A stretch of DNA of 64,000 nt from a virus. The stretch is taken from the IMG/VR virus record IMGVR_UViG_3300036884_000163, positions 1 to 64,000 of that record; one strand, given 5' to 3'. A program made the translations under genes and the position numbers. This document shows, piece by piece, positions 41,395 through 61,848 of this stretch. Numbering within the stretch: the first letter of the stretch is position 1; each line of letters starts with the position of its first letter. Below the pieces are notes generated by a model that saw nothing but the letters and a program-made list of their open reading frames with translations, made no database searches and was not told the origin of the DNA.

Positions 41395-42150
41395 TCAATA
41401 CACCCTGCAGGACGATCCGCGATAAATCGTTACCAGATCGGCGACAGTCGGCGCTACAAGCTGAATGTTGAGCACAGTCCCGGAAGCGCTTGCACCCTCT
41501 ACCGTTCCCCAGATATGAGCTGGCATCTGGGTTGCGGCACCGCCAAGCGTCCAAGCCACGCCAATCGCCTGCGATGATGTACTAGAAATCTGATCAACGA
41601 TCGCGCCTGATTTTGAAGACCCCGTGGCCGTGCTCATGAGGTAGGAGGCGGTTATGTTGGTTGCTGCGTTAGTCGCCGTCTGTACGTCCCAATAGTTTGC
41701 GGTTGCCGCGGTAGCCTGCCCAACGATAAGATTGCAGTCAAAACTCCAAGTCGCAGCGACCAAGGGCAGAGTAAAACTTAGTGCGCCAATCGTCACCGGA
41801 CTGGTGCAATCACTGACCGTCCCGGCCGTTCCGCACGTCCAGTCGGCCCCGGTAATTGTTTTCGTCTGCGGAAAGCTCCCGGCAAAGGCCGTCCACGCCG
41901 ATCCACTGTATTGACAGGTAACAATGGTCGTTCCTGCCCCAGCGCCGCAGTCCGTGGCTGAGTTTCCGTTTGTGACCACGGCAATGGTGCCAGCCGTTTT
42001 TCCCGAAACACTGGCCAGTCCGGCAACGGTCGTAATCGGGATACCACCACCGCCGCCACCTGGTTGAACCAAGGTCTGAGCAAAGACAGGGGCGGAGAAC
42101 AGCAACGAGAGCACCAACAGCCTCAACGATTTCATGGGAAGTGTTCTCAT
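41395..42150 (-). CDS. signal-peptide-bearing fibre/adhesin-like protein
   Basis: MKSLRLLVLSLLFSAPVFA-Q; Thr/Ala/Gly-rich with paired Cys. Confidence 0.75.
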   Translation of the reverse strand: MRTLPMKSLRLLVLSLLFSAPVFAQTLVQPGGGGGGIPITTVAGLASVSGKTAGTIAVVTNGNSATDCGAGAGTTIVTCQYSGSAWTAFAGSFPQTKTITGADWTCGTAGTVSDCTSPVTIGALSFTLPLVAATWSFDCNLIVGQATAATANYWDVQTATNAATNITASYLMSTATGSSKSGAIVDQISSTSSQAIGVAWTLGGAATQMPAHIWGTVEGASASGTVLNIQLVAPTVADLVTIYRGSSCRVY

Positions 42151-42569
42151 CGGGATAGTTGCCGCCATTCGCGCATCTCAACATAAACCGCCGTCGCGCT
42201 CGCGCTTTTCACTTTCAAATACGGAGTTGCCGGACGAACGACTCCATCGGGATAAGTGAAACTGCCGAATCCGACATGCTCATTCTTTGCGATGGCGTCC
42301 CCGATCTGGATGATCTCGCCGGGAACCGCGGGATAGGTGTTAGCGTAGTTTTCGTCAGCTCGCTGGTATTCGAGTCCTTGCCCGGTAAAAGCTCCGCCAG
42401 TGTAGTTGCCGACGCCGCCTTGTGGACATTCCTGAACCTCGACATATCCGAATGATCCCTGCGAAGCGGAGAGCAGAACGAATGCGCCGGCACTTCCGTT
42501 GATAGTGACGATGGTGCGGATCGGGCTTGCCCGGTTCACCACACCTGCGGTATTGGTCGGATTGGCCAA
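42147..42569 (-). CDS. putative structural protein
   Basis: GGAGG RBS, TTG start, beta-rich. Confidence 0.65.
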   Translation of the reverse strand: MANPTNTAGVVNRASPIRTIVTINGSAGAFVLLSASQGSFGYVEVQECPQGGVGNYTGGAFTGQGLEYQRADENYANTYPAVPGEIIQIGDAIAKNEHVGFGSFTYPDGVVRPATPYLKVKSASATAVYVEMREWRQLSR

Positions 42570-42570
42570 G

Positions 42571-42774
42571 TTATTTCCTCCCGGCGCCGGTCGCGGCTGC
42601 CCACTTCTTCTTCATTGGTGAGGCCTTGTACTCTTCGTCGCCAGCATCCGCTTTCTTCTTTTCGGAAAGCATGATCGCGATAGCTTGTTGACGGGTTTTT
42701 ACGACCGGGCCGGCCGGACCTCCGGAGTGCAGGGTTCCTGCTTTCCATTTTCCCATCACCGCTGTATATGGCAT
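42571..42774 (-). CDS. DUF6496-like small basic protein
   Basis: VM...KAGTLHSG...GPVVK.R.QAIAI.LSE. Confidence 0.75.
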   Translation of the reverse strand: MPYTAVMGKWKAGTLHSGGPAGPVVKTRQQAIAIMLSEKKKADAGDEEYKASPMKKKWAAATGAGRK

Positions 42775-43262
42775 TGTAGGTACTCTAAGGCGTTACGCAG
42801 GCCGTCAACACTGTCACCGAAACAACCAAGTCCAGTGTTGCAGGTGCTACACAACAGGCCGCGTATCGTCCCTGTCTCATGATCATGGTCAACGGCCAGT
42901 TTTCGTGCTTGAGTCTTTCCGCAAATTTTGCAGTGCCCAGATTGCTTGGTAAACATCCGCTCATATCGGTCGGGCGTGCAACCCAATTTCCCAATTTGTC
43001 GTACCCAGTTCCGCGCCAACGTCTTGGTCTTGTGCTTGGCATAGTAACGACGGTGCATTGCTTGCCACTTTTCTGGATCGGCTGCGTATCGCGCTTTGTC
43101 CTTTTGTCGTCTTACTTCTAATGAATCGCCGAACTCGTGGGTGCATGTTCGACACTCAAGATAAACTCTGTCCCCGCGTCGGCGTTCATAACAATTTTCC
43201 TTTGTCCGCAGATGTCCGCGTCCACAATGCGTCGAGCGGCGACCAAACGTTGACCTCTGCAT
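42756..43262 (-). CDS. endonuclease VII-family (HNH) nuclease
   Basis: Q...CKIC...LAVDHDH.TG.IRGLLC..CN..LG. Confidence 0.9.
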   Translation of the reverse strand: MQRSTFGRRSTHCGRGHLRTKENCYERRRGDRVYLECRTCTHEFGDSLEVRRQKDKARYAADPEKWQAMHRRYYAKHKTKTLARNWVRQIGKLGCTPDRYERMFTKQSGHCKICGKTQARKLAVDHDHETGTIRGLLCSTCNTGLGCFGDSVDGLRNALEYLQCHIQR

Positions 43263-43268
43263 CTCTAC

Positions 43269-43697: not shown

Positions 43698-45416
43698 TCA
43701 GTTCAAGACTTTTACTGACAAATTCATCAACTTCGGTACTGCAGTCGATGACGTGGTTTGCACCATAATCACCTGCAAACGTGCTGGCCCCGCCAAGTTC
43801 AGCGAGCCAACTGCTGCCACGGTCATATTCGGCCCCACCGCAGGAGTTGCGCACGTAGTCAATGCACATTCCGCCAAGTAGCCATGACCCGCCTGAATGC
43901 TTCCGCCAGTTGCCGTAGCCGAAGCTACGGTCGTGGTGAAATCCTGGCAGAAGTCAAACTGCCCGGTAGTTCCAGTCGTCAACGTATTGGTTACGGAAGG
44001 CCCGCCAATCAGAACCGGCAACCCGGTGGTGACGTCCGACCCCTGCGCATCCCACTCGAAGGCGATCTGCACAACCGTGCTTGCGCCCTGCGTGGACGAA
44101 TAGGCGTAGCCGCAGACCTCAATGCTGCGGCCGACGTAGTTCATGAAGCCAGCAGGAAGCTCAACCGATCCCAAAGGCTGAGGAACGGTCGAGGCCGCCG
44201 CAGTGGCAATCGTGTTAGCTGGCAGCACTTTCACGACACCCGGTATTCCAGGAGTCGCTGCCGGCGCATAGGTATACGCGGTTCGCGCCTCACTGTTTGC
44301 TTGGTAGTAGCTGGCCGTTGAGATCAGACCGAGCTGGACACCTTGCGGCGAAGTTACCACTGGATACGCAGTAACGACCGCACCGGAACCGGTCTGGCCG
44401 TAACTGGCGTTGGTAATCGCGCAAGCGTACTTGCCAATCGACAGCAGAATGGGACTCAAAGTGCACACCCCACTCGATACCGGCGCGACGTTTACTACCG
44501 TCGGCTGAGTGTAGAGCTTCACTTGATATTCGTTCGTAGCCGCGCCGCTCATCAGCCCGATATACGGAATCCATCCGCACGCTCCTGTAATGGCGGCGGG
44601 CGCCGTGAACTGGATTGCCGTGGTAGCCGTAGCTGTGAAGGAGTAATCGGCGGATTCCGGTCCTTCGTTGCCCATGCAATCGACTGGAGTGTAAGCAACG
44701 TGGATGGTTGCGGCGGTGTACGACGCGGAACCGGCCACGGTGAGACTCGAAAACGCCGTAGCGGACGTCAGCGCACCCGGAGCCGCGAACAGGCCAGCCG
44801 CCGGAGCGGGATTCCAGTACTGCCACTGCGGGCCGCGCTTATCGATAATCTGAACACTGGGATAAACCAATGTTCCTAGTGGATACGCCGAGGGCAGGCT
44901 AGCCGCAGAATCAATCGTGACGATGCCTACACCCAGCGACAGTGCATCATTCATCGCTTCTGCCACTCCGCCATCGCCGGACGTGATGGTCACTCCCTGC
45001 GCGTGCGAGTTGGCAAAGGTTGCAGTGAACGAGCAGAAATACGGTTGCGGGTAAGACGGGGTAGTGGCAGCCACCGACGGGAACGATGCGGCGGTTTCCG
45101 AAGCCACTGCTTCCGAGCTTGCTCCGTCCTGCACCTGGATGGGAACATTCAGCGCCTGAGCGCCCTGCGCCCAGAAAGGAAAGATTTGACGGTTGCCAGT
45201 GCCCACGTGGATAAAGCACGGAGCGATCTGAACGTTGTTCGCGCCGACCGCGATCGGACTGAGCGTGGTCACCGCCCACTTGCCATACTCCGAGACGATG
45301 ATCTCGCCCGCGACCTGGTTAGATTGTGAAGGGTTGCCGGATTGAGCCAGCGCTGGAACTGTGCCAGCCACCAGCCCGCCGAGTAGAGTTAATGCCAGCG
45401 CAAGCTTTCGGATCAT
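43698..45416 (-). CDS. signal-peptide-bearing tail/fibre-like protein
   Basis: MIRKLALALTLLGGLVAGTVPALA-Q; VAYTPVD..GNEG..S phage tail motif; AGGAG RBS. Confidence 0.8.
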   Translation of the reverse strand: MIRKLALALTLLGGLVAGTVPALAQSGNPSQSNQVAGEIIVSEYGKWAVTTLSPIAVGANNVQIAPCFIHVGTGNRQIFPFWAQGAQALNVPIQVQDGASSEAVASETAASFPSVAATTPSYPQPYFCSFTATFANSHAQGVTITSGDGGVAEAMNDALSLGVGIVTIDSAASLPSAYPLGTLVYPSVQIIDKRGPQWQYWNPAPAAGLFAAPGALTSATAFSSLTVAGSASYTAATIHVAYTPVDCMGNEGPESADYSFTATATTAIQFTAPAAITGACGWIPYIGLMSGAATNEYQVKLYTQPTVVNVAPVSSGVCTLSPILLSIGKYACAITNASYGQTGSGAVVTAYPVVTSPQGVQLGLISTASYYQANSEARTAYTYAPAATPGIPGVVKVLPANTIATAAASTVPQPLGSVELPAGFMNYVGRSIEVCGYAYSSTQGASTVVQIAFEWDAQGSDVTTGLPVLIGGPSVTNTLTTGTTGQFDFCQDFTTTVASATATGGSIQAGHGYLAECALTTCATPAVGPNMTVAAVGSLNLAGPARLQVIMVQTTSSTAVPKLMNLSVKVLN

Positions 45417-45485
45417 TGTTTTTCTCCTGTTAGTGTGTGAAGCGTTTACGCAAAGCCCGCGCGCGGCGGGCGACTTCCTTAGTAT

Positions 45486-45857: not shown

Positions 45858-46295
45858 TTAAACACAGTGCCCGAAATACCAAGCGGCGACTTCGGCGCGC
45901 GTGGACATGCCGGTCTTATTCATCACTTCGCGCATGTAGTTTTTCACTACCTGCTCGCTGGTGGAAAGCAACACGCCGATTTGCTTGTTGGTATTTCCGT
46001 GCGCCACTCCCTCCAAGACCATTCCTTCTTTCAGAGTGAAGGAGTGCGCCATTCCTAGAGGGCAAACGAACTTTCCTGAAACATTCGTAAACAGGTTAGC
46101 GAGTTTCACCCGCTTTCCGGATTCTTTGATGCCCGCGTGCCGGAACAGCGTGCGCAGGTGCTGTTTCACTATCCCCATGCTGATGTTCAGGTGGCTCGCG
46201 ATTTCTTTGTTGCTGCATCCCTGCACCAGCAGACGCAGCACTTGCTGGTCACGGGCTGTGATCTTGAGCGCGGGTGTCATGACATTTTCGTGCAT
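45858..46295 (-). CDS. tandem LuxR-type HTH regulator without a receiver domain
   Basis: ITARDQQVL..L.QG.SNKEIA and FT.KE..VL..VA.G.TNKQIG. Confidence 0.88.
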   Translation of the reverse strand: MHENVMTPALKITARDQQVLRLLVQGCSNKEIASHLNISMGIVKQHLRTLFRHAGIKESGKRVKLANLFTNVSGKFVCPLGMAHSFTLKEGMVLEGVAHGNTNKQIGVLLSTSEQVVKNYMREVMNKTGMSTRAEVAAWYFGHCV

Positions 46296-46516: not shown

Positions 46517-46729
46517 TTACTTCTTGCCAAGGGTAACGACATGCACCGTCGCCCGCGCCGTCTTCTGGGCTGCTTTCTTTGTCGCCTTCGCAATCGGGAT
46601 AGCGACATAGTTTCGTGTGACGACCGATCCCGCCCCGATGCCCAGACCGATGTAGAGGCTTTTGCTGTCCAAGGTGCCAGCGAAGGCCACCGAGGACAGC
46701 AGAAGAAGAATGGTCGCTAGGCGCTTCAT
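46517..46729 (-). CDS. small exported/membrane protein
   Basis: MKRLATILLLLSSVAFA-G signal peptide. Confidence 0.65.
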   Translation of the reverse strand: MKRLATILLLLSSVAFAGTLDSKSLYIGLGIGAGSVVTRNYVAIPIAKATKKAAQKTARATVHVVTLGKK

Positions 46730-47304
46730 TTCACCTCGTACTGCTTGCCGAAGACTCCTGCTTTCGAATTGAAATCAGCCCGGAAGTGCTTTGCAGATTT
46801 CAGATTGTTAAACAGAGCCTTAACTTCGTCATGGCCGGTGACCTTACCCTGGACGACTGGGAGCAACGCGAGTAGGGAAGTAAGCTCGGCAGCAACGGCG
46901 TCAAACACGGCGACAATCTTTACCTGCGTGCCGGCGTCGGTAACGTGCAATTCTGGCAGTAGGGCCGCCAGGTTGGTATTGATGACACCAATCAGGGTCT
47001 GGATCTCGACCAGGATGCCAGGTTTGGCGCCCGCAGCGGCGGCATTGTACTGATCGATCAGCCCCTTGACAGTGAGTAAATCGGCTTGCGCCGCGGTTGA
47101 CCATGCCTGTATCGCTGTCAGGGCTGTGGGCGGTATACCAAGACCGAAGGCTGCCAGGATGGCTAGCGCCGAGGTAATGGCTGGTCCCAGCAAAATGATG
47201 ATGTTGGAGGCTTCCGTGGTCCATGCGGTTGTGCAGGCCGTCGCGAACAAAAGCAAGTTGAGCAGAGCGAACAACAAAAAGAATCTGACAGCAAAGCGTT
47301 TCAT
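46726..47304 (-). CDS. lipoprotein, possible lysis accessory
   Basis: AGGGA RBS; lipobox FATAC. Confidence 0.7.
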   Translation of the reverse strand: MKRFAVRFFLLFALLNLLLFATACTTAWTTEASNIIILLGPAITSALAILAAFGLGIPPTALTAIQAWSTAAQADLLTVKGLIDQYNAAAAGAKPGILVEIQTLIGVINTNLAALLPELHVTDAGTQVKIVAVFDAVAAELTSLLALLPVVQGKVTGHDEVKALFNNLKSAKHFRADFNSKAGVFGKQYEVK

Positions 47305-47348: not shown

Positions 47349-47855
47349 TTAAGGATTTGGAAAGTACGGAGCGTGCCAGTCCATTACTTCCCAGCATTGA
47401 ACGTCTTTCCCGTCCCACAGCCACACGTCGTTGCCGTTCAAGTCGTGGGTATGAATTTGCTGCGTGCCATCCTTGAAAGTAATTTGGAGGTAAGGCCAGG
47501 GCGACTTCAGACCATCCCAAAATCCGGGTTGACCGTTGAAATTGAGCTTCAGCTCTTGCGCCTGCACTTTGTTGAACCACCTGATGCAGTTGTTTACGTG
47601 CCTCGCGTCGTCCGGCATGAGCGGAAAGAAGATTTTCATGTCGAGCGGTTGACCGCCGCGGTCCATGTCCATAACGTGATACTCGACGCCAATCTGCGGG
47701 ATGGTAAGCGGCGTCCCCGCAGGATCGGGATTGACGACTTGAAATGTCGAGAATTGGACTGTATCCACGTTTCCGGTCACGGTGAGCAGAACGCCTTGAG
47801 CGGCGCACGCGACAGAGCCTGCAAAGAGCAAGATGCTTAGAATTGCATGTTTCAT
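47349..47855 (-). CDS. exported hypothetical protein
   Basis: MKHAILSILLFAGSVACAA-Q; ATGA coupling to the endolysin. Confidence 0.65.
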   Translation of the reverse strand: MKHAILSILLFAGSVACAAQGVLLTVTGNVDTVQFSTFQVVNPDPAGTPLTIPQIGVEYHVMDMDRGGQPLDMKIFFPLMPDDARHVNNCIRWFNKVQAQELKLNFNGQPGFWDGLKSPWPYLQITFKDGTQQIHTHDLNGNDVWLWDGKDVQCWEVMDWHAPYFPNP

Positions 47856-48376: not shown

Positions 48377-48675
48377 TACCAAAACCAGCAAACCAGTGCC
48401 ACCGCAACAACCGCGACGCCTGCACACAGCGACCACCATGGGAAGCCTACCTCGGGAAGACGTTTCGGCCCGGCGCTGTAGTCATTGAACTCCGATTCGA
48501 GCGGATCCGGAGGTACCGTACAGACTTGGGGATTAATGGAGGCAACGGTAGCCGCATAGAGCAGGGGATTGATGGAGGCAACGGGGACCGTTTGACAAGT
48601 TCTCGCTTGTCTCGATCTGATTGGCGTGACTTTCGCCACCTTCGCCTTCGCTTTTTTCTTCGCGTTTTTCTTCAT
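48376..48675 (-). CDS. basic protein with C-terminal TM
   Basis: Lys-rich N-terminus, VASINP twice, C-terminal hydrophobic helix. Confidence 0.6.
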   Translation of the reverse strand: MKKNAKKKAKAKVAKVTPIRSRQARTCQTVPVASINPLLYAATVASINPQVCTVPPDPLESEFNDYSAGPKRLPEVGFPWWSLCAGVAVVAVALVCWFW

Positions 48676-53900: not shown

Positions 53901-55611
53901 TGCAATTACCGTTGTGCACCCCTGCAAAGTCGGATGACGTACAGTGCAACACGGTTCCGGATGGAATCTTGATACGCCACGATTTGTCCAAGTAACCGCC
54001 CCCAATGGTGTTTCCACCATTGTCACGCCAGTTATAGCAGGCGTCGAGTAATCCAGCGGGCGTGAGAGCATAAGCCGCGCCAAGGGCTTCGCCTGCAACG
54101 TTTGGCCCATTGTTGACCGACGTTCCAAGAGTCAGGTCAACGTAGTAAGTTCCCCCAGGCGGATTGCAGACGGTATCGTCTACCCATTTGATTGGGAGCG
54201 CAGCGCAAGCGAGCGGGATCCCAAAGCAATCGCCCGAAGAAGGGGGAGGAGCAGGGCTGCCTACAACCGCTACTAAGTTAATGCCTCCGCTACCCGAAAC
54301 TGCCGCGAAGCGACCTACTCTTGTGCGTCCAGGGTTTGGCGCGACCTGGCCGGTGCCGGTAAGGCTAACGGTCTGAGTGCTGCCCCCAACGCCCCCGGAA
54401 TCGTCCGTCACGGTCAAGGTTCCGGTGCGCGTTCCTGTGGTAGTCGGAGTGAAGGTCACTGAGATTGTGCAAGAAGGATTAAGGCCTCCTGTCCCGGATA
54501 ACACACTAGGACAAGTATTCGTCTGGGCAAAGTCACCTGTGATCGAAATGGAAGCGATATTCAAATTTGTCGTGCCGCCGTTTGTCAATGTAACCGTTTG
54601 ACTGAAACTGGTGGTCCCGGTTTGCTGCGCAGCGTAAGTTAATGTATTAGGTGAAATCGTCGCATAAGAAGTAGTGATTACATATGCAGCGGACGCGACC
54701 GCAGAATCTGCAAGGCTGGCGGTCCCAGCCACGGCGTAGAGCGTTTCACTTACGTTTACAGTTACGCTTCCTCCGTTTGCAAGCGGTGTGCCCGTTGTGC
54801 AATTGATACCGTCCCCAGTGGTCTGCGGATTGGACATTAGGCCATAGCAAATCAAAGCACCCGTTGTTGAGCTGGTAATCGCAACGCTCAGAGCGCTGGA
54901 GGACGTGCCTCCGCCCGGATAAAATGTCGGCGTAGCGGCATTGGAGATTTCCGTAAAAGCAATCGCGCTCAGGGCGGCTTGCGCGGTGTCCTGCGTCCAT
55001 GCCGGCGCCGTGCCGCTCGACGTGTTGATGCTCGTGGCAAATCCTGAATTGCCGCTGAAATCTTGGTATGTGCTGTAGGGAGACGATACGGCGGTAGGAA
55101 TACTCCCCCAGATAATTTGATAGATCGCATCGCTCGATCCCGCCAATGTCAACGTGACTCCGGCGGGACTCGTCGTGTTCGTGGTCTGAGCCCTGGTTGC
55201 CGGACTTCCTGTATCCACTATGGCAGAGACGCCAGTGAAAGAAAGTTCCGTAGCCTCCACCCTCCATGCGAATGTAGTGGTGTCAGTTCGTGTCACCGTG
55301 ATCGTTGTGGCTCCGCTCGTGCTCGATAGGGTGTAAGCGCAATCCGAACCATTGGTTGTGCTCTGGACGCCATAGCAACCGGCGGGGTGAGTGTAAGTGC
55401 CTCCGCCGCTGACGCTGACAATCTGTTCCGCGTTGCTTAAAATGCCGAACCCTATAACAATGACGTGACCCGATCCTGTACTCGCTACGGTTATGTCGCA
55501 CGTCGCAGAGGTCGTGACGCAGGTGCCAGAGACAGCATGTTGCACCACGGCCCACGAGGCCCACGCGGGCGAGCCTATCAGCAGTATCAGCGAAAGTAGA
55601 AGTCGTCTCAT
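50977..55611 (-). CDS. exported multidomain beta-helix depolymerase/adhesin (beta-sandwich, CHB_HEX_C-like, ASH/choice-of-anchor D, pectate-lyase-like)
   Basis: Signal MRRLLLSLILLIGSPAWA; ATPTF.P.GGT; QTVTLTN.G...GDFAQTNTC...CTISVTFTP; GP.KIVNN..EG, VKN.FE.K...DGNI.EN. Confidence 0.85.
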   Translation of the reverse strand: MRRLLLSLILLIGSPAWASWAVVQHAVSGTCVTTSATCDITVASTGSGHVIVIGFGILSNAEQIVSVSGGGTYTHPAGCYGVQSTTNGSDCAYTLSSTSGATTITVTRTDTTTFAWRVEATELSFTGVSAIVDTGSPATRAQTTNTTSPAGVTLTLAGSSDAIYQIIWGSIPTAVSSPYSTYQDFSGNSGFATSINTSSGTAPAWTQDTAQAALSAIAFTEISNAATPTFYPGGGTSSSALSVAITSSTTGALICYGLMSNPQTTGDGINCTTGTPLANGGSVTVNVSETLYAVAGTASLADSAVASAAYVITTSYATISPNTLTYAAQQTGTTSFSQTVTLTNGGTTNLNIASISITGDFAQTNTCPSVLSGTGGLNPSCTISVTFTPTTTGTRTGTLTVTDDSGGVGGSTQTVSLTGTGQVAPNPGRTRVGRFAAVSGSGGINLVAVVGSPAPPPSSGDCFGIPLACAALPIKWVDDTVCNPPGGTYYVDLTLGTSVNNGPNVAGEALGAAYALTPAGLLDACYNWRDNGGNTIGGGYLDKSWRIKIPSGTVLHCTSSDFAGVHNGNCISLPGKANPSTGVEPTQCLTLESTTPLTAGVMACGRGLPGFGGARNPGCDGHTNPGVLPNDKASMWTVMLDVVPATGDTGIEASVDPVTSTNVTNHIVIRDVEITTKPGAAPSKNGSTVPVLFHGQSNPLATRPASPLSVNYVGLDRFYVHGWDPGDSGQPTTGSSVDATGNCLSWYNSGTVTTANTDGTHGSVTLTSTVPTLAFGNTFFGPTFTVSPVSTINIGGTMSNLPSGAGGSISGGANYTISDFDPTTSNTVLTINGQPGTQTGVQYLQINPPSNYTPGCGDDSSAGVTFNIDNGWLMNGYIEKIHHWSSETKAATYGFDNGPTKIVNNWMEGGSETLFSGGAPADQNGGPGSDNEIRKNYLGRDLNWRLLTGGAANSPAPPWGCGTFESKYASHNTCPFPWSVKNSFEAKEGHRNLVDGNIIENTWSDGQSGFAVLLLVEATSGGQAAGVFDPATGRPASYLDNVRLSNNWIRNAPNPVQMIGRGDMNTGNGGGTTLPVGHNDFINNLFTNIGDTNQFNTPGHMWQWTSGNGNNYTCAMSYVTVSPSLYTVTANCSPFQTDIKSPAHIQSITVDSSHNVTILHASIRLDPTLSTSAAGTCITSGASWTTCPIIVGSSIVGTSPNTGALSAGSFAMTGTSGQWAGYSDGTGGQTIVYNDPASTPGTVCSTLAACNTAIGSGTLTFASLAGKMIAIAGGDGVYAHNIGGGDTTCADNGYATGSTTANYAIGETATIGLIVKYNLTSAPAPGITNCLVNNGAGLGRFITLQHNTFLSPNNFAITNFGAWHSPISNFFHDNVFATTDTGASSDVYSTAPAGEGTTAFQSWDLASFQFYRNVLENQGTGSNWSVVGCPAGVTDCTNHFPTTVNCATSTADGTCLGYSGFMGSSPTVTYPTGACPNGNAPFNCPLMALPWANNLTLSNLAYDATSIYKTQGVDTTQMNTAMTQNGYVCPAGAYCGTHGPYPDH

Positions 55612-56303
55612 TATGGTTTCAACTCGATTGCGGCCGCTTTCCAAACGCCAGTAGTTTGAGTCGCCGTACAATCTATCGTGGCCGGCGAAGCGGACGTGTT
55701 ATCGACGAGCACTCCGTTATTTGCGGTAGTGGTCACCGCCTGACGTGGAGTTCCAACCGTCACCGTCATTACGTGGGTCGCACCGTCACCCAGTCCGCAG
55801 ACTATGTAATCGTTGCTATAGGATGTAGCCACGGCAATATCCGCCGTCGTGCTACTTCCATTGTTGACGCTTCCCGAACCCACCACGGCAGTAACCCCGG
55901 AATACCCTTCTTCCACTACAAAGCCGGTTCTCGCCGTAGTCCAGGATAAGATATAACTCGTGACTCCAGAAGGAACCGATGCTTGATAGAGGGACGCAAG
56001 AGGAGAGACTGCCGGACCCACGCTTAGAGCATTGCTCAGATTATCGACCCCACTCAGCGCGGTTATTGAGCTGCTGGTGTAAAGATAGATAATCGAAGTG
56101 CTTCCAGTGGCAGGCGACGGAGAGGGTGTGACTGTTACTGTTGAGTTTGAGGTAAACGTGGCCGCATATCCGTTGATCGCAGGCGTGATTGTTCCACCAC
56201 CGCCCGCCACCGGTGGTTTAGAACCCACCACGCTTAGCCACTGAAAGCCAGATCCAATTGCAATCAGCACTGCCAACGAAATGATGATTCCAAGTTTTCT
56301 CAT
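55611..56303 (-). CDS. exported beta-sandwich protein, paralog of the N-terminal domain of 50977..55611
   Basis: Signal MRKLGIIISLAVLIAIG; E.YSGV...D.IV.G...AAAIELK. Confidence 0.75.
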   Translation of the reverse strand: MRKLGIIISLAVLIAIGSGFQWLSVVGSKPPVAGGGGTITPAINGYAATFTSNSTVTVTPSPSPATGSTSIIYLYTSSSITALSGVDNLSNALSVGPAVSPLASLYQASVPSGVTSYILSWTTARTGFVVEEGYSGVTAVVGSGSVNNGSSTTADIAVATSYSNDYIVCGLGDGATHVMTVTVGTPRQAVTTTANNGVLVDNTSASPATIDCTATQTTGVWKAAAIELKP

Positions 56304-56304: not shown

Positions 56305-59300
56305 TTAGCTGCTCGTCGATGTGCCGGCTAAGGTCGTACATTTCAGACTGTAGGCCGAAGCACCAGTCTGAAACGAGAAACAGGAGAATGAGTTCCCAAT
56401 TCCTGGAGTGGCGAAGATGATATGAGTCACTCCGGATGCAGAACCATCGAGGTATATATTCGCTGCGGTCGTGCCATTTGTGACCGAATTATATTGCCAA
56501 GCATAAGCTCCGGGAGCCGTGCCGACGATCATAATAAAATTCATGCCCGCCGCTGGCGTCGGACCCGTGATCGCTACCGCAGCCGTCGTCTGACCATAGT
56601 TCCATGCCATCGCATTCGAAAGTTGCGCTGCGGTCGGACTGCAAGCCGTATGACAGTCGATGGATTGTGGAGTGACAGATGCGGTAGTCAACGTAGGGGA
56701 GGTCGAAGGCGCTTTGGCGTTGAGTTGTGTTTGAATGCTAGATGTAGGATCGACATAACCCATGACCGTCGAAGTCACGCCGTCCACCGTTTTGTTGGTT
56801 AAGACCTGTGTGTCAGTCGTTCCAACGATTGTTCCCGTGGGGGCCGCGACGGACGAGGTAATCGTATTCGCTGTTGCCGCGACTGGGATCTGCGTTGCCG
56901 TCATTCCAGAGAGTCCGCTGCTGCCGGCCGCGCCGAATGGCCCCACGGTTCCACCATTGATTCGGGCATACATTCCAGCAGTAGTGGTCCATAAGTCTCC
57001 GTTTACTGGGCTAGTAGGTGCGGAACCATGCGGAACATTTAATCCAGTAGTCGTAGTAGTAGATGCAGCCGTTACAACTTCTGCGGTGTGGGTTTGCACC
57101 GCTGTCCAAGTCGCCGCCCGACCGAGAAACCCAGCACAACCAAAATTATGCACTACAGCGGATCCATCGCTGTACTCGGCGCTAAAACAATGGTTCGTTG
57201 AATCAAACGTGGTTTCGTGCGTAAAAATTGGCAATGTCGTGTCTAGTGCGCCTTCGGTGGCCAAGTCGTAGGGAGGAGTTCCACCTGAATTTCCTGTGAT
57301 TGGCGTACCCTCAGAAAACGAAGTCGTGGAGGCTAGGGTCGAGAAAAAGCCTGGCGCCGGAGTTGTTCCACCGATTGTTGGCGGCGCAGCGTAGCTTTGC
57401 GTTGCGAAGGTTCCAAACGCCACATTGTTGGTTTTGGTGCAGGTAGCGACGCCCGTGCTGGCGAGCGTGCAGTCTTGGCTCAGGGCCGTTGGCGCATAAG
57501 CGGTTCCACCAGAATTTCCAACCGCCAGGTAGCCTGCCCCCGGCGCGGTGTTTGGCATGACTGCGGCCTTCGTCTGCGCGTCGTTGGTTACGCTGCTCAG
57601 GCCGACAGACGTTTTCGTAACCGAGATCGCGCCCGCCGTATTTAGGACGCTGGTGCCATCCGGCTTGACGCCGCCCAAAACAGATGCAGTGGCCGTCGGC
57701 AGCGAGTAGAGCGCCGCGAAGGCCCCTGTGTTCAAAGCTCCCGACGCTGACGGTTTCTGGCCGTGCGTTCCGTCTGCAACCATTGGCACCTCTGCGGTTG
57801 TTCCCGGATCAGAGGAGGTCGCCGTGCCCGCTGCAGAACCAAACACCGTTAGCGTCGTTGCCCAGGCCGTGCAAGGCGTTCCTATACAAACTGGAACTCC
57901 TGGTGTGGTGGGCCACGTCATCGCGCTACCGGAGGATCCGCAGCCTGTTCCGGTGGATAAAATCACGCCTGAAGAAACATTGAGGCAACCATTCGACAAG
58001 CTGGCTAGCGTAACACTCTGATCGAACTTCGCCGGAACGTTGAACTCTTTCAGCGATGCGGTCAACCTTTCCAGCCAGTTTGCGGTTACGCCATCGCCAA
58101 CCTGCGCGATGTAATTCGTAATTGACACCGGGGCTCCAAACGCAAGCTGCCCCGAACTCAGTCCCACTCCGGCGCTCGGCACATCCGTGCCAATCCACGT
58201 ATCGTTCGCACTTGCTGGTGGACGATACCCCCACGTTGCTTGAGTCAGGGCAGGCTGGGAATCAATCAGTGTGATGATATGGTGTGGATTTAGGCCCGGG
58301 GTAAACAGGGAAAAATTCAGTCTTCCTTTTGCTAAGACCGAAAAGGAATTATGGGGGTTATTGTCCTGCAAGAACGTGGCGGTGGCGTTAGGGATGCTAT
58401 TATTCGTGGTATTGATACTCGACAAACAAACTGTAGCTCCTCCTGGCGACGCTGCTCCGTAGACCGAGCACCGATTCGCAACCTGAATCGGATCTCCATA
58501 CAATCCAATTCCTACGACGTTCCCTACTTCCACATCTACCTTAACAGTTTTGTTGACCGCTACTATTGAACCGGGCCAGAAGTTTAATTGTCCTGCATAA
58601 TTCCCAGCCTTAATCGTGTATGCGGAAGTGGATGACGATCCTGTATCAGTGTAAGTACAAACCAACGTCCCCGAACAAGCCGTGGCTTGAGATAGGTTGT
58701 GCGCCACATATCCGCACGTCCCACCCGATCCACCGGGGCATCCGCCATTGTAGGGATAGACTGCACCGACTCCAACCGGAGTTGTCATGCGGATTACGTC
58801 ATAGGTGATCGTGTCAGTTCCGTTTGCCACTCGCGGCCAACTAACCGGAATTGAATCGCTTCCGGTAGAACTCCAATTGAGAATCTGCATCGGAGAGGTT
58901 TGCGTATTGGCAGTCGTATCATTGGCTACGATGTAATAGGTGTATGGCGTAGCGCCAGCTGCCGTTCCGAACACCGTCCCTGCGGTTAAAACAGAGCTTG
59001 TCGTCAACTGAAAAGTGCTGGAATTGCTTGCAGTGACTGACCAAGTACCGTTGTACCCTGATGGAGTCATTCCGGTTATGGCTACGTTGTTTGTTCCTGT
59101 GCCGGGATTCAGTGTTGACGTTATTGTGATCGTGTAAGTAGGGCCACCACCAGATTCACTGGCTGCCGTGATCGCGGCACTGGAGACGCCAGCCTGAAAC
59201 GCACCCTCAGGTGCCGGTCCGGCAATCTGAAAATTTGCATTTAGGGTCGATTCTCCGGCAATCAAACCAGCAATTCCAAGACCAGGAAAGGGAGACTCGG

Positions 59301-61848
59301 CAGCGGAGCACGAGGATGGATAGCTACTACAAGGCGGATTGGCGGCAGCGCTGCTCTCGGAGTAGATGTTCTTAAGGTAGGCTCCCTGATAGTTTCCGGT
59401 GGAGTTCGATGAATACACTTGCCACAACGAGGTGGCCTGAATGACTGTGTTCTCGATGTACAACCCGTTCGAATTATAGACGGTTATTCCTAGTTGTTGA
59501 GAAGTGATGTTCGAGTCGCGCAGCGTGATGACCGAAGCGTGATTATGCGCTATGTTCATCTGGCCACCCGAGAAGACATAGGAACCGATCCACGTTGCAC
59601 CACCGTTTAATCCCGCGCTATTGTTATTGAAGTGGTCAACGGTCGCGTTCTCGTCATCCCAGAAATCGAAGAAATTATTGAATGCACCGTTCTCTCCTAC
59701 AAGGTCGCCAGAAATATCGTTAAAGTGTGTACCGTTTGCATTGTCCAAAATCGCTTCATAAGCTAAGGCAACGACTCCGGGAGTATTCATGGAAACGGGC
59801 GCTCCGGGATGTGCGTAAGTATAGGTCACACTCGACGGCACGGACGTAATAACGGCATCTCCCCAATAAGTTGAGCTGTCCGTAAACATCTGCGTAACTA
59901 TGTCACCCGGACGAAATCCGTGGGCGGATGCCGTGGTGATTGTAGCAATGCCGCCAGAGAAGGATGTGTTGGTAATGTTTACGCCAGCATATGCGGCGAT
60001 AGATGAGTGATCGGTTGGAGTACGGAAACTGATGCCTTGAATGGTGTTACTTACAAAATCATTGGCGTTTACGCGATCGCCGACCTGGATACAAGCTCCA
60101 CGCCCAACGCAATTCAGGGAGGTTCCATATCCGCTCAGTGTAGACTGGTTAGCGTGGACGAAGATCGTGCCGTAAACGTTGTAGTTGTTTATTGAATGCG
60201 GATAGCCTGGACCGTTCGCAGGAATTGTTACATTGCATTGGGCGTTCTTGTAGTACGTTGGGTCGGTACCGCAAGCGACGTTGACCGTTTCCTGAATGCC
60301 AGAAGAGGCCGAACCGATTGTGTAGGCAGAGTGTGAGAAGAAGGGCGTGAAGAGAATGGTCCCTCCACTCCCCGCGGTATAAGTGCCACCCGTCACGTTC
60401 ACTGCTTCGCTATTTGAACCATCCGTGATGTAGACCTGATAGCCAGCGCCCGAACTCACGTCAATGCCAACGATTCCCGAAGCAAGAGTCACAGTTGCCG
60501 CCGTATTCGCCGTGAGCGCCGTAGTCGAAGATTTCGACCAGTTCATCGCCGATGTCACGTAGGCGGTGGGGGGATTAGGACATTCCACACTGACATTCGG
60601 AGCCGACTGCTGAAACAGGCAGTTAAAATAGCCAGTCTGCGGTGCGGGCGTTGCAGCGTTCAGGTTGGCCGCCGACTGCGATACGCTGTTTACGCTGAAG
60701 GGGAAGCTACCAGGCGAAGGAACTGGGATCCATGTCTGGTTGCCAGCAAGAATCGTAGCCGAGTTCGCCGCGCCACTGCCTAGTTGAGCCGTGGGCACAT
60801 ACCCACCGACCAGGCTCGCCTTGGCGGCTAAACCGGTGTCCACATATCCCTTGTTGCTTGCGTGGTTAATCGCCGTAGGGTTCCCTGGCAGCGTGATCGG
60901 ACCTGTGACCGTTCCCCCGACGAGCGATAGATAAGAGCCGCCCGAGCCAGGGGCGAACTGGCTAGCGAGATTCCCTACCGGGCACCCAAGCGAGATGTCG
61001 CCAGTCGTATCCGTAGCGAAGTTGCAGTTCAGAAATCCCGCGCCAAAGAGTGGCAGAACGTTGTTGAAGTTCGCCACCGGGACGGTGCTCCCAAGCGGGA
61101 CGCTGTTCACGCTGATGTTCGCCGCCCCTACGACACCGACGCCCAATCCGATGACGGTCGCCTGCGAGAAGTCGAAGAGGCCTTTAAAGAATGCCGAGGT
61201 GCCGGTTGGCTGCGTCCAAGTCTGGCTGTTGATGGGATTGCCGAAGAGTTGATAGAAGCCGGGAGGCGGGGGAATCACGGTGCACGGCTGCGTCAGGGCA
61301 GGATTGAAGGTGTCGCCGCTCGTCAGGCAGTAATACTCCGGCTGTCCGCCGGCTTGGTTGCTCGCTTTGTACTCGGTTACGAGCCACTGGGTAGAGTTCA
61401 CGTTCCCACAAAGGATTTGGTCTTGCCCGTAAACACTACCAGCGATTAGACCTGTGGTCGGATTAGGACGCATATCGAACTGCTGCGCGACGATGGCAAA
61501 GGCATTTCCTTGTACCTGGGGGACGTTATTTCCACAGTTCCACAGTTCGAAGTGGAGATAACCGGTCTTTTGAATGTTGCCCTGGCCGTCGGTAAGCGTT
61601 GCTGTGACGGTGACGCCGGGAGCTTGAGCGTAGGCGCACACTCCAAGCGTTAGCAGGGTGATAGCCGATAACGCCTTGAGTAACAATGCACGCATTCTAA
61701 TGAGGCGCCCATGCGCCCGAGCTTCCACCGAACGACACCGCGCGCAGCAGAAGACACCAGTCGTTTGCCCTGGCGAGCCCTCTGTGTCCACGTGACCGAA
61801 CAATCGGCACAACACAATGAGCGCTAACGCCTTGAGAGTAGGTCGCAT
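56305..61848 (-). CDS. giant tail-fibre-like protein; internal start at 61695 yields a Sec signal peptide
   Basis: Fibre motifs HASNKGYVD, YSLPTATASVLGGVK, VGLSSVTNDAQ, LTNKT; central beta-helix; MRALLLKALSAITLLTLGVCAYA-Q. Confidence 0.85.
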   Translation of the reverse strand: MRPTLKALALIVLCRLFGHVDTEGSPGQTTGVFCCARCRSVEARAHGRLIRMRALLLKALSAITLLTLGVCAYAQAPGVTVTATLTDGQGNIQKTGYLHFELWNCGNNVPQVQGNAFAIVAQQFDMRPNPTTGLIAGSVYGQDQILCGNVNSTQWLVTEYKASNQAGGQPEYYCLTSGDTFNPALTQPCTVIPPPPGFYQLFGNPINSQTWTQPTGTSAFFKGLFDFSQATVIGLGVGVVGAANISVNSVPLGSTVPVANFNNVLPLFGAGFLNCNFATDTTGDISLGCPVGNLASQFAPGSGGSYLSLVGGTVTGPITLPGNPTAINHASNKGYVDTGLAAKASLVGGYVPTAQLGSGAANSATILAGNQTWIPVPSPGSFPFSVNSVSQSAANLNAATPAPQTGYFNCLFQQSAPNVSVECPNPPTAYVTSAMNWSKSSTTALTANTAATVTLASGIVGIDVSSGAGYQVYITDGSNSEAVNVTGGTYTAGSGGTILFTPFFSHSAYTIGSASSGIQETVNVACGTDPTYYKNAQCNVTIPANGPGYPHSINNYNVYGTIFVHANQSTLSGYGTSLNCVGRGACIQVGDRVNANDFVSNTIQGISFRTPTDHSSIAAYAGVNITNTSFSGGIATITTASAHGFRPGDIVTQMFTDSSTYWGDAVITSVPSSVTYTYAHPGAPVSMNTPGVVALAYEAILDNANGTHFNDISGDLVGENGAFNNFFDFWDDENATVDHFNNNSAGLNGGATWIGSYVFSGGQMNIAHNHASVITLRDSNITSQQLGITVYNSNGLYIENTVIQATSLWQVYSSNSTGNYQGAYLKNIYSESSAAANPPCSSYPSSCSAAESPFPGLGIAGLIAGESTLNANFQIAGPAPEGAFQAGVSSAAITAASESGGGPTYTITITSTLNPGTGTNNVAITGMTPSGYNGTWSVTASNSSTFQLTTSSVLTAGTVFGTAAGATPYTYYIVANDTTANTQTSPMQILNWSSTGSDSIPVSWPRVANGTDTITYDVIRMTTPVGVGAVYPYNGGCPGGSGGTCGYVAHNLSQATACSGTLVCTYTDTGSSSTSAYTIKAGNYAGQLNFWPGSIVAVNKTVKVDVEVGNVVGIGLYGDPIQVANRCSVYGAASPGGATVCLSSINTTNNSIPNATATFLQDNNPHNSFSVLAKGRLNFSLFTPGLNPHHIITLIDSQPALTQATWGYRPPASANDTWIGTDVPSAGVGLSSGQLAFGAPVSITNYIAQVGDGVTANWLERLTASLKEFNVPAKFDQSVTLASLSNGCLNVSSGVILSTGTGCGSSGSAMTWPTTPGVPVCIGTPCTAWATTLTVFGSAAGTATSSDPGTTAEVPMVADGTHGQKPSASGALNTGAFAALYSLPTATASVLGGVKPDGTSVLNTAGAISVTKTSVGLSSVTNDAQTKAAVMPNTAPGAGYLAVGNSGGTAYAPTALSQDCTLASTGVATCTKTNNVAFGTFATQSYAAPPTIGGTTPAPGFFSTLASTTSFSEGTPITGNSGGTPPYDLATEGALDTTLPIFTHETTFDSTNHCFSAEYSDGSAVVHNFGCAGFLGRAATWTAVQTHTAEVVTAASTTTTTGLNVPHGSAPTSPVNGDLWTTTAGMYARINGGTVGPFGAAGSSGLSGMTATQIPVAATANTITSSVAAPTGTIVGTTDTQVLTNKTVDGVTSTVMGYVDPTSSIQTQLNAKAPSTSPTLTTASVTPQSIDCHTACSPTAAQLSNAMAWNYGQTTAAVAITGPTPAAGMNFIMIVGTAPGAYAWQYNSVTNGTTAANIYLDGSASGVTHIIFATPGIGNSFSCFSFQTGASAYSLKCTTLAGTSTSS

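Follow-up and report, generated by a model that had tools for sequence, protein, structure and literature searches.

All parts of tailed phages are thought to be built in the cytoplasm, and it is there that the fibres and tailspikes of podoviruses, such as T7 gp17, P22 gp9, the SP6 and K1-5 tailspikes and the endosialidases, are made. A virion receptor-binding protein with a cleavable leader, folded with disulfides in the periplasm, is known from filamentous phages, namely pIII. The phage proteins ordinarily exported are of other kinds: spanins, Sec- or SAR-type endolysins, the T5 exclusion lipoprotein Llp, and Lom and Bor of lambda. Leader-bearing proteins of unknown function have also been described in P. 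gingivalis phages, where they follow the Bacteroidetes Q-rule (PMC10367356; PMC5837995); the rule is described as Bacteroidetes-specific, and Acidobacteria are unmentioned in the passages of PMC5837995 covered.

The window analysed here, the whole stretch of 64,000 nucleotides, belongs to a 72.9-kb virus contig (72,949 bases) rated 100% complete by CheckV. It has relatives in Terriglobales assemblies, and we take it for a soil phage of short-tailed type from Terriglobales (Acidobacteriota). The relatives are many and uncultured; no isolate of the clade was found, and a tblastn search with the 572-aa protein described below gave 0 matches in 50,697 phage records. The terminase large subunit (15289..16989; this and all genes listed below with a range are on the minus strand) was recognised by family match (phrog_979, 1.3e-40), and the major capsid protein (33861..35153) through its relatives, 5 of 9 family members matching phrog_14242 (major head protein) and the window's own member giving no such match. 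Among the leaderless parts these two labels have family support, whereas the portal, adaptor, nozzle and ejection proteins named in an earlier, sequence-only reading were assigned from position and size only. A papain-like C1 peptidase gene (39732-40487) adjoins the portal-like gene. Neither a tyrosine nor a serine recombinase was found in the rated-complete record, and promoter- or terminator-like sites are no commoner than in shuffled sequence.

The sequence-only reading had reported ten leader-bearing N-termini in the block at 41395-61848, and all ten are present at minus-strand starts 61695, 56303, 55611, 50963, 50685, 47855, 47304, 46729, 45416 and 42150. Each opens with a basic n-region, continues with a hydrophobic core free of charges and has small residues ahead of the likely cut, the calls being made with a home-made n-h-c heuristic, not SignalP. 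Ten of the ~19 ORFs taken as genes in this block thus bear a leader; in the neighbouring block (15289-41373), 1 of 26 ORFs was flagged by a looser heuristic with internal starts included, and that one is unconvincing. Shine-Dalgarno-like sequences lie upstream of the starts at 50963, 50685, 47304, 45416 and 46729, and the starts at 56303, 47855 and 42150 abut or overlap the preceding gene's stop codon. The likely signal peptidase I cut falls mostly ahead of Gln. The 230-aa product has a hydrophobic core of 17 residues with no clear cut site, and its leader may be a signal anchor instead. At 47304 the window has a weak lipobox, whereas that of the homolog from the related locus L004 is canonical. 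For the 1544-aa ORF, the source's gene call begins at an internal Met and yields 943 aa, which we read as an artefact because homologs align upstream of that Met.

Leader conservation was followed in four families, those of the 572-, 1796-, 1544- and 251-aa proteins. Leaders were found in 109 of 114 full-length homologs of the first and 109 of 120 of the second; 36 of 39 homologs of the 1544-aa core (1040-1470 aa) have a leader of their own, as do 110 of the best 150 homologs of the 251-aa C-terminal domain. Homologs keep the leaders while the remaining sequence diverges; in the 572-aa family, 109 of 114 sequences have a small-x-small-Gln site. In the mature proteins, the number of Cys is even for 108 of 114 sequences of the 572-aa family, 99 of 109 of the 1796-aa family and 34 of 36 of the 1544-aa core family; among the terminase, portal-like and capsid proteins encoded at the same loci, which have no leader, it is even for 12 of 36. 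Paired gain or loss of cysteines is seen across the leader-bearing families: in that of the 572-aa protein, which has four invariant Cys, columns pair up, with two present in 85 sequences each (85 have both), two in 39 and 38 (38 both) and two in 21 each (21 both). The Cys richness ascribed to the large products was recovered, at 1.7-2.4% in four large or medium leader-bearing proteins versus 0 in four leaderless structural proteins. When 20 related viral contigs are counted together with this genome, a leader is present on 34 of the 39 ORFs of fibre-like composition and on 10 of the 149 others. As a control, six fibre-type proteins of Tunturi_3, a cultured acidobacterial podovirus (PP885686), have no leader and contain 0, 1, 1, 7, 1 and 1 Cys. 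Because leaders are conserved and mature Cys counts are even, Sec export and disulfide folding of the block's leader-bearing proteins appear well supported by sequence, and the earlier proposal of export for oxidative folding agrees with the leaders, the pairing and parity of Cys, and the control phage, which has neither.

It seems somewhat probable that five products of the block (1796, 1544, 572, 251 and 230 aa) are fibre-, spike- or lectin-like proteins and that these, together with a number of small partners, are all made with host-type Sec leaders. The 1796-aa fibre- or tailspike-like protein (56305..61695, its ORF open 51 further codons upstream, to 61848) bears a leader and the fibre motifs that had been quoted for the 1.8-kaa product. 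It has 254 homologs of ~1.9 kaa, the named ones being from Terriglobales, and matches annotated tail fibre proteins over 30-41 residues; one homolog (P0122) contains BppL_N repeats (E 6.6e-13). Its model is poor and gave weak beta-helix and beta-barrel fold matches, at Z 6-9, within the tool's common range. The Ser/Thr/Gly-rich 230-aa protein (55611..56303), with its hydrophobic leader or signal anchor, starts one base past the upstream stop and had no family match in searches. The leader-bearing 1544-aa protein (50977..55611) consists of an N-terminal extension, with an Ig-like domain at residues 324-421, fused to a core family of ~1090 aa. The leader-bearing, disulfide-rich 572-aa protein (43698..45416) has three beta-sandwich modules, and in its model (pLDDT 76) the C-domain looks TNF-like or jelly-roll and the N-domain tail-protein-like, on matches at Z 7-8 that tie with unrelated rows and are likewise within the tool's common range. 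In 19 of 22 loci its gene neighbours a portal-like gene, and in 10 a terminase; on comparative grounds it is a core gene of the clade, in the terminase-to-capsid module, and its product is a candidate primary receptor-binding protein. Identity within the family is 31-50%, versus mostly 21-25% for the portal-like protein of the same loci, and conservation above that of the portal-like protein is unusual in a receptor-binding protein. The 251-aa leader-bearing protein (41395..42150) has a short N-module and a C-terminal domain which elsewhere ends proteins of 102-2355 aa (371 representatives at E <= 0.001). Its start abuts the stop of a leaderless 140-aa gene (42147..42569), look-alikes of which (157-165 aa, kinship judged by eye only) precede the leader-bearing genes of relatives. 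The motif [L/V]xVVGSxxP, once suggested as a docking peptide, is not supported: it sits in a Gly/Pro-rich stretch directly behind the leader, and all-against-all BLASTP detected no shared module (best E 0.26-0.9), hence no N-terminal anchor common to the leader-bearing proteins. By eye, no outer-membrane sorting signal was evident in them.

Two small partners, each preceded by a strong Shine-Dalgarno-like site, are a leader-bearing 93-aa protein with 6 Cys (50682..50963) and a leader-bearing 133-aa single beta-sandwich protein (50284..50685), whose fold, by eye, is putatively fibronectin-III-like; a related locus (L008) has a small leader-bearing gene similar to the latter. Lysis genes are interleaved in the block. 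The endolysin (VanY / Peptidase_M15_4; 47852..48439) is supported by PF02557 (2.8e-08), PF13539 (2.2e-06) and phrog_2649 (1.6e-16); a 115-aa protein with two membrane helices (48679..49026) would be holin-like, and one of 113 aa (49039..49380), in which a membrane helix at the N-terminus is followed by a charged coiled-coil tail, i-spanin-like, neither having a family match. The start of a leader-bearing 168-aa protein (47349..47855), also without family match, overlaps the endolysin stop codon. Next, the 192-aa lipoprotein (46726..47304), with its lipobox-like site, had been counted among the adsorption parts but is probably a member of the lysis cassette and not a fibre part, as lipoproteins of 207 and 186 aa adjoin lysis genes in the related loci L004 and L019; a spanin-like role is our guess. 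The block further includes a leader-bearing basic 70-aa protein (46517..46729), a LuxR/GerE-type helix-turn-helix regulator (45858..46295; PF00196, 1.5e-22) and an Endonuclease VII (42756..43262; PF02945, 2e-22).

Do the exported proteins reach the virion? The sequence-only reading had them form an adsorption apparatus joined to virions in the periplasm or at lysis; of this, export and disulfide folding stand, and virion attachment is what we infer from four points, namely the lack of any other fibre-like gene, the core status of the 572-aa gene, gene position in two relatives, and Cellulophaga phage phi18:3. That no separate signal-less fibre gene exists holds over the whole 72,949-base record, with the caveat of a leaderless 1267-aa protein (25846..29649), nozzle- or hub-like by position and size, which is the sole other receptor-binding candidate. 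It is of intermediate composition, has 9 Cys and an atlas lead to the Phage_stabilise cluster at 0.90. The two relatives, G203 and G205, each have direct terminal repeats and a completeness rating of 100%; they have ~1000-aa homologs of this protein between adaptor-like and ejection-like genes, and leader-bearing fibre-like genes (363 aa in G203, 462 aa in G205) that overlap the last of the putative ejection-protein genes at its stop codon. Because the fibre-like proteins carry secretion signals and paired cysteines, the periplasm, rather than the cytoplasm, is probably where the host-recognition gear folds. Exported fibres and cytoplasmic tails are in separate compartments before lysis, which is an obstacle, and no description of assembly via exported fibres was found in the literature.

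We lean towards reading the block as late genes for the outer gear of a Terriglobales phage of short-tailed type, whose exported fibres dock on the tail. Late in infection, the leader-bearing proteins would cross the inner membrane unfolded, signal peptidase I would cleave their leaders, mostly before Gln, and disulfide-bonded folding would follow in the periplasm, three steps that the leaders and cysteines support. Heads and tails would be assembled in the cytoplasm as usual. With the inner membrane breached by the holin and the wall degraded by the endolysin, the outer membrane would presumably enclose particles and periplasmic fibres in a common compartment. Docking on the tail would take place at that stage or in the lysate, and would involve the 572-aa protein at the least and probably the large proteins too.

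A tentative alternative, which we rate clearly lower, is that the proteins are exported and disulfide-folded but stay free, as periplasmic or lysis-released glycan-binding or glycan-cutting proteins, the nozzle-like protein binding the receptor. They might strip or mask receptor or exopolysaccharide against superinfection and loss of progeny on debris, or clear matrix for release. This agrees with the well-supported export itself, with beta-helix-like stretches as close to polysaccharide lyases as to tailspikes, with the missing shared anchor module, with a 572-aa family more conserved than virion proteins and with the leaderless 1267-aa tail protein; the leader-bearing proteins of P. gingivalis phages have been read as host-surface modifiers (PMC10367356). 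However, it would leave a rated-complete genome and two complete relatives without any fibre or spike, whereas the leader-bearing genes come after the ejection-protein genes, overlapping the last stop, and their products show tail-fibre motifs and exchangeable C-terminal tips, as receptor-binding proteins of virions typically do; there is also a virion precedent in phi18:3, and no outer-membrane sorting signal was evident by eye.

Lysogenic conversion, in which a prophage would supply its host with beneficial surface adhesins or enzymes, is improbable. Exported phage proteins such as lambda Lom and Bor are of such a kind, and homologs of the 1796-aa protein occur in Terriglobales chromosomes (34 of 201 genomes, including G090, flagged unpublished); but the same gene cluster adjoins the homolog in 4 of 4 chromosomal contexts inspected, and the one cluster scanned contains a terminase and a portal gene. 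The lysogen-adhesin option of the earlier reading is further weakened by the missing recombinases, by co-oriented genes interleaved with lysis and morphogenesis genes, several with stop/start overlaps, and by promoter- and terminator-like sites that do not exceed their frequency in shuffled sequence. Least probable of all, and very unlikely in our view, is that the hydrophobic N-termini are not Sec signals but chance, wrong starts or cytoplasmic propeptides, cut for example by the papain-like peptidase. The heuristic calls, the C1 peptidase gene next to the portal-like gene and the one source gene call that begins downstream of a leader would fit, and prohead protease cutting has been suggested for capsid 'signal peptides' of P. 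gingivalis phages (PMC10367356). Against this, leaders with host-like cut sites are conserved in hundreds of diverged homologs, ribosome-binding sites lie directly upstream of leader starts, paired and even cysteines are hard to reconcile with cytoplasmic folding, and Tunturi_3 has neither leaders nor Cys parity.

Compared with known podovirus fibres and tailspikes, those of Tunturi_3 included, the window's proteins are alike in their low-charge, Ser/Thr/Gly/Asn-rich composition and fibre repeat motifs, in having jelly-roll tips, beta-barrel and beta-helix-like modules and distal domains that are exchanged as modules, and in gene position behind the ejection-protein genes or behind the terminase. 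The known fibres differ in being leaderless and folded in the cytoplasm, and those of Tunturi_3 have neither leader nor Cys parity; no particle-binding N-domain was identified with confidence in the window's fibre-like proteins. Ordinary exported phage proteins are likewise products of late genes using host Sec or lipoprotein export, and the 192-aa lipoprotein and the helix/coiled-coil protein fit among them, but they are small and few per genome, whereas in the window leaders are found on five fibre-like proteins, the largest of 1796 aa, whose genes together take up ~13 kb. With pIII the window's proteins would share a cleavable leader, disulfide folding in the periplasm and a role in adsorption; inoviruses, however, are extruded at the membrane and have no cytoplasmic capsid, whereas terminase and capsid protein indicate a tailed, packaged particle here. 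The P. gingivalis phage proteins have leaders that copy the host signal peptidase I site, with Gln at +1, but they have been read as host-surface modifiers and are not reported as fibre-like, core or many per genome.

A close likeness is phi18:3 (Pachyviridae, NC_021794), cultured and short-tailed. Just upstream of its endolysin gene, three adjacent late proteins, gp085, gp086 and gp087 (547, 785 and 559 aa), all begin with a host-type leader cut before Gln, and by the record annotation they are virion structural or tail proteins by MS/MS; leaders are absent from the phage's nine remaining structural proteins with an MS/MS annotation. A caveat on the annotation of the three is that secreted proteins, when abundant, can end up as contaminants in preparations of virions, and no discussion of these leaders was found in print. 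The host is from the Bacteroidota, BLASTP at E <= 0.01 linked none of the three to a protein of the window, and gp085-gp087 differ in having few Cys (0, 1 and 3) and ordinary charge content. If our reading is true, the folding of fibres in the periplasm departs from the all-cytoplasmic build assumed for tailed phages.

In the textbook account of tailed phages, every virion part is made in the reducing cytoplasm, and receptor-binding fibres and tailspikes fold there and carry no secretion signal. As predicted from their sequence, the fibre-like proteins of the minus-strand block at 41395-61848 break this no-leader property, and this is the central point of our finding. A sequence-only reading had claimed that ten products of the block begin with a signal peptide, and all ten N-termini were found in place, with an n-h-c form. 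Leaders were scored with a home-made rule: a basic n-region, an uncharged hydrophobic core of about 7-17 residues, and small residues at -3 and -1. By this Sec/signal peptidase I rule, nine of the ten qualify, the exception being the 230-aa product (55611..56303), which lacks a clear cut site. Good Shine-Dalgarno-like sites precede 5 of the 10 leader starts, and 3 starts abut or overlap the upstream stop codon. When a looser form of the rule was applied to the neighbouring block, from the terminase gene to 41373, one weak match was scored among 26 ORFs.

The leaders were retained in homologs of four families, while their sequences drifted. For the 572-aa protein (43698..45416), 142 homologs were found at E≤0.001; among the 120 listed, 114 were full length, and 109 of these 114 have a small-x-small-Gln site after the hydrophobic core, with Gln directly after the cut. 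The 1796-aa protein (56305..61695) has 254 homologs, and a leader was detected in 109 of the 120 listed; the other 11 include 5 fragments and 4 proteins whose evident leader escaped the regular expression. The 1544-aa protein (50977..55611) is a fusion, made of its own leader, an N-terminal extension with an Ig-like domain, and a core of ∼1090 aa whose stand-alone homologs have their own leader in 36 cases out of 39. Finally, the C-terminal domain of the 251-aa protein (41395..42150) terminates 371 representative proteins of 102 to 2355 aa; a leader starts 110 of the best 150 of these 371, many of the remainder being fragments.

Some observations concern how such starts are called. For 50977-55611, the gene call of the source is a 943 aa product beginning at an internal Met, and a second contig was called likewise (944 aa); automatic gene calling may regularly cost such genes their leaders and N-domains. 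An internal start giving a leaderless 572-aa isoform was considered and rejected, no Met being present near the cut site. Many chromosomal homologs of the 1796-aa protein (our protein handles P0126-P0128, P0136, P0137, P0152, P0156-P0158 and P0163-P0165, among others) are called with a conserved Arg-rich extension of ∼28 residues before the leader, reminiscent of the extended signal peptides that are a feature of very large secreted proteins. A hydrophobic, leader-like N-terminus was also seen in Cys-free, highly charged scaffold-like proteins encoded after the portal-like gene in six related loci (L003 9541-10944, L010 5690-7102, L016 11140-12534, L017 7637-9049, L018 9884-11287 and L019 14587-15960); the scaffold-like protein of the window (35233-36762) is without it.

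Cysteine content was then compared between leader-bearing proteins and leaderless controls. In the 572-aa family, four Cys are invariant, and Cys columns are gained and lost two at a time, with phi values of 0.98-1.0: the columns of one pair are filled in 85 sequences each, all 85 having both, those of a second in 39 and 38 (38 having both), and those of a third in 21 each (21 having both). In the mature chain, Cys residues are even in number in 108 of 114 members (binomial p 3e-25), as they are in 99 of 109 for the 1796-aa family, among the 120 listed of 254, and in 34 of 36 for the 1544-aa core family. Among leaderless proteins of the same loci, even counts were found for 2/10 terminases, 7/19 portal-like proteins and 3/7 capsids, 12/36 in total. 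The leader-bearing fibre-like proteins of our all-against-all set contain 2-3% Lys+Arg, 3-6% Asp+Glu, 49-54% Ser/Thr/Gly/Asn/Ala and 0.9-2.4% Cys; four leaderless structural proteins (421, 1046, 406 and 509 aa) contain 11-12% Lys+Arg and no Cys. Because the leaders are conserved, and because Cys parity and pairing set these families apart from the leaderless controls, we hold it highly probable that the leader-bearing proteins are exported by Sec, cut by signal peptidase I and oxidatively folded in the periplasm. The first half of the earlier reading, export with oxidative folding, is thereby sustained; its second half, late docking on virions, keeps the status of a proposal.

The residue after the cut is itself of interest. 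A cut before Gln is almost always found in the 572-, 1796- and 1544-aa phage families, and often in leaders of Terriglobales hosts: in ORFs of the chromosomal loci L036-L046, ∼6 of 11 convincing leaders end before Gln by eye, and 5 of 17 flagged by script, a very small sample. Under the Q-rule, most substrates of a host have Gln right behind the cut, where it is cyclised to pyroglutamate. PMC5837995 describes this rule as Bacteroidetes-specific and makes no mention of Acidobacteria. Different leader-bearing proteins of one phage also have in common Gln-Asn-Phe-Pro/Ser-Gly at the predicted mature N-terminus (pairs starting at 7106 and 9578 in related locus L008, 2597 and 5765 in L012, 7376 and 9335 in L019), with BLASTP E values of only 0.07-1.6. 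This motif may reflect a preferred cut site, or act as a short tag for sorting or docking.

Are these proteins fibres? The three tail-fibre motifs reported earlier were all recovered in the 1796-aa protein. A close homolog of it has three BppL_N repeats (E 6.6e-13). Within the 1796-aa protein itself, the stretch 1552-1592 is similar to proteins annotated as tail fibres in two phages, one of Stenotrophomonas and one of Bradyrhizobium. The monomer model of its residues 1-900 was poor (pLDDT 46.7) and usable only over 383-660, a part resembling beta-helix proteins and the phi92 endosialidase beta-barrel at Z 6-9, a range which the tool calls common; these matches are given little weight. The 572-aa model was better (pLDDT 76, pTM 0.78) and is made of three beta-sandwich modules. 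Its residues 44-150 resemble tail-tip and tailspike N-domains, and its TNF-like or jelly-roll C-terminal module matches, among others, the PRD1 P5 head, a cyanophage short-fibre binding domain and a lactococcal phage receptor-binding protein, in both cases at Z 6-8 and tied with unrelated rows. Pfam and PHROGs gave no match for nine of the ten leader-bearing products, and none when the two large ones were cut into 400-residue pieces; the 1544-aa protein is the exception, with an Ig-like stretch and phrog_18474. No match was obtained with phmmer against PDB sequences for the two large proteins, nor in the ESM Atlas for the 572-aa protein. Since the fold matches (Z 6-9) rank level with unrelated rows and the 1796-aa model is poor, these sequences and models lend moderate support to a fibre or tailspike character and do not prove it. 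The short docking peptide suggested previously was abandoned: all-against-all BLASTP found no module common to the leader-bearing proteins (best E 0.26-0.9).

Scanning viral contigs with the 572-aa protein as single query gave no relative. An 8-row alignment was used, because a 30-row alignment was too diverse for a genome scan, and homologs were found on twenty IMG/VR contigs. The gene lies beside a portal-like gene in 19 of 22 loci and beside the terminase gene in 10 of 22, the usual order being terminase, 572-aa homolog, portal-like, scaffold-like, capsid. Among ORFs of at least 200 aa in this genome and the 20 contigs, a leader was found in 34 of 39 with fibre-like composition, versus 10 of 149 others; at least two of the five leaderless fibre-like ORFs have a truncated or mis-set start. 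Two viral relatives, G203 (47.7 kb) and G205 (45.6 kb), are both rated 100% complete, with direct terminal repeats. In both, an adaptor-like gene, a ∼1000-aa nozzle-like gene and three Cys-free putative ejection-protein genes are followed by a leader-bearing fibre-like gene (363 and 462 aa, respectively), whose start overlaps the stop of the preceding gene. In T7-type genomes, the slot after the ejection-protein genes is the tail fibre gene position. The earlier statement that no signal-less fibre gene is present holds for this genome: no fibre-like ORF was seen between the capsid and terminase genes, and the last 9 kb hold no ORF above 325 aa. One qualification concerns the leaderless 1267-aa nozzle- or hub-like protein (25846..29649), a candidate binder.

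A leaderless gene of 140-165 aa lies directly 5′ of the leader-bearing fibre-like gene in the window (42147-42569), in G203 (21069-21545) and in related locus L012 (2103-2600), while a 70-aa ORF intervenes in G205 (33946-34419), kinship between these genes being judged by eye. The stop of the 140-aa gene of the window abuts the start of the 251-aa gene. The small protein may be a chaperone or an adaptor. Complex prediction of the 140-aa protein with the mature 251-aa protein gave 0.48, 0.00 and 0.00 in runs with no control pairs folded, and weighs neither for nor against binding.

The block also contains lysis genes, and LuxR-type regulator and endonuclease VII genes are interleaved in it. A VanY/M15 endolysin is encoded at 47852-48439. 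The product of 48679-49026, with two membrane helices, looks like a holin, and that of 49039-49380 (113 aa, an N-terminal helix followed by a charged coiled coil) like an i-spanin; family searches with these two products gave no match backing either label. The 113-aa protein fits the inner-membrane partner of a spanin pair. The 192-aa lipoprotein (46726..47304) contains an additional hydrophobic stretch, and its gene is set apart from that of the 113-aa protein by those for the holin-like protein and the endolysin; the -3 residue of its lipobox is non-canonical in the window, canonical in the L004 homolog and looser in that of L019. Because similar lipoproteins adjoin lysis genes in these two related loci, the 192-aa product is more probably lysis than adsorption equipment. 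The idea that all ten products form an adsorption apparatus probably does not extend to this lipoprotein.

The 64 kb of the window are the beginning of one virus record of 72,949 bases, linear according to IMG/VR and 100% complete according to CheckV. No tRNA was seen in the 64 kb. The large terminase subunit (15289-16989; phrog_979, 1.3e-40) has a best identity of only ∼26% to any terminase among 50,697 phage records. Of the names given earlier to leaderless parts, that of the capsid has support through relatives: in the family of the 430-aa product (33861-35153), 5 of 9 members match phrog_14242, major head protein, and a PDB profile search with this family gave no match. That of the portal (37221-39728) was not confirmed, as a PDB-sequence profile search and PHROGs scans of 11 family members returned no portal, and the name reflects size and position alone. 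At profile residues ∼197-263, this portal-sized family has a double Cys-Pro-x-Cys-Gly zinc-ribbon insert matching ribosomal zinc-ribbon proteins. The portal-like gene is immediately followed, as transcribed, by one for a leaderless cysteine peptidase of the papain family (C1; 39732-40487; PF00112, 9.8e-09); a 64% identical copy lies in a Terriglobales chromosome (L039 14852-15607), beside a lipoprotein gene and a small gene that is endolysin-like by eye. Genes at 5600-6997, 7157-7735 and 7829-8947, in the early region on the plus strand, code for a C-5 cytosine DNA methylase, a RusA resolvase and an AAA_24 ATPase. A prophage boundary or host island was rejected, as phage genes lie on both flanks and the gene order is syntenic in L004.

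The host is very probably a member of Terriglobales, since relatives of the 572-aa protein are present in assemblies titled Terracidiphilus and Acidobacteriaceae, and named homologs of the 1796-aa protein are from Terriglobales, which we take to be diderm bacteria. A homolog of the 1796-aa protein was found in 34 of 201 Terriglobales genomes, a tally including one flagged unpublished (G090). In the four chromosomal contexts that were examined (loci L036-L046; G155:C7 ∼700-760 kb, G121:C4 ∼1.53-1.59 Mb, G070:C6 and G117:C7), a homolog of ∼1.9-2.2 kaa adjoins the same gene cluster, flanked by the same host genes in at least three. A capsid-sized gene is part of this cluster too, as is, in G155 and G070, a further leader-bearing beta-helix-like gene; that of G155, the only one scanned with PHROGs, encodes a terminase (phrog_2) and a portal protein (phrog_2662). 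The cluster may represent a domesticated element of gene-transfer-agent type, with a fibre that is likewise exported.

How would exported fibres reach a virion? Heads and tails would assemble in the cytoplasm, and the whole receptor-binding apparatus would be exported through Sec and disulfide-folded in the periplasm. The fibres would join the tails only after the holin has breached the inner membrane, either in the space that the outer membrane still encloses or in the newly formed lysate. Between holin and spanin action, the contents of cytoplasm and periplasm are mixed inside a still intact outer membrane, as established in lysis biology, and this stage is a plausible place for fibre-tail assembly. 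We lean slightly towards the view that, after the holin has acted on the inner membrane, at least the 572-aa protein docks on tails built in the cytoplasm. That the clade builds its virion in two compartments, with a cytoplasmic head and tail and a periplasmic receptor-binding apparatus joined after the holin breach, is put forward tentatively, and in our estimate falls a little short of an even chance.

The main rival to docking is that the leader-bearing proteins stay free, as binders or enzymes directed at the receptor or the matrix, with the leaderless 1267-aa nozzle-like protein binding the receptor. The leader-bearing proteins have no anchor module in common, the 572-aa family has diverged less than the portal-like protein, and some modules look, in their models, like lyases, all of which favour free proteins. 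Alternatively, the genes might be morons, serving lysogenic conversion, such as the lysogen adhesins envisaged earlier; this supposes a temperate phage and an independent transcription unit. Neither PF00589 nor PF00239, that is no tyrosine integrase or serine recombinase, was found in the 72,949-base record, promoter- and terminator-like sites are about as frequent as in shuffled sequence, and the leader-bearing genes overlap late genes, which argues against this explanation.

If receptor-binding proteins are routinely exported and disulfide-folded, then assembly needs a step after holin action; to our knowledge, nobody has looked for such a step in tailed phages. Recombinant fibres and depolymerases of such phages should then be made in the periplasm or in oxidising strains, and annotation that takes a signal peptide as a non-structural sign will mislabel key host-range genes. 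Leader style, here a cut before Gln, would then also be a clue to the host. The window extends the pattern of leader-bearing fibre-like proteins to Acidobacteriota, a dominant soil phylum from which very few phages have been isolated.

Our search of full-text papers found no description of Sec-exported fibres of tailed phages. The nearest case in print is that of five leader-bearing proteins of P. gingivalis phages, of unknown function and read as host-surface modifiers (PMC10367356). Closer to the presumed host, Tunturi_3 (PP885686) is a cultured podovirus of an Acidobacteriaceae host (PMC11924767); none of the terms 'mass spectrometry', 'tail fiber' and 'signal peptide' is used in that paper. 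The fibre-type proteins of Tunturi_3 share the low-charge composition of those of the window; unlike them, they are without leader and contain 0, 1, 1, 7, 1 and 1 Cys. The leader and Cys pattern is therefore not a by-product of acidobacterial fibre composition. BLASTP found no similarity between proteins of the window and those of Tunturi_3 or of the Cellulophaga phage phi18:3 (NC_021794). In the latter, gp085, gp086 and gp087, encoded just upstream of the endolysin gene, each begin with a leader cut before Gln, as in the window, and the record, which is the virion evidence, annotates them as structural or tail proteins 'based on experimental MS/MS proteomics analysis'; nine further proteins annotated as structural from MS/MS are without leader. 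The likeness to phi18:3 is only an analogy for the presence of the leader-bearing proteins of the window in virions, and phi18:3 is a cultured system in which the question of exported fibres is directly testable.
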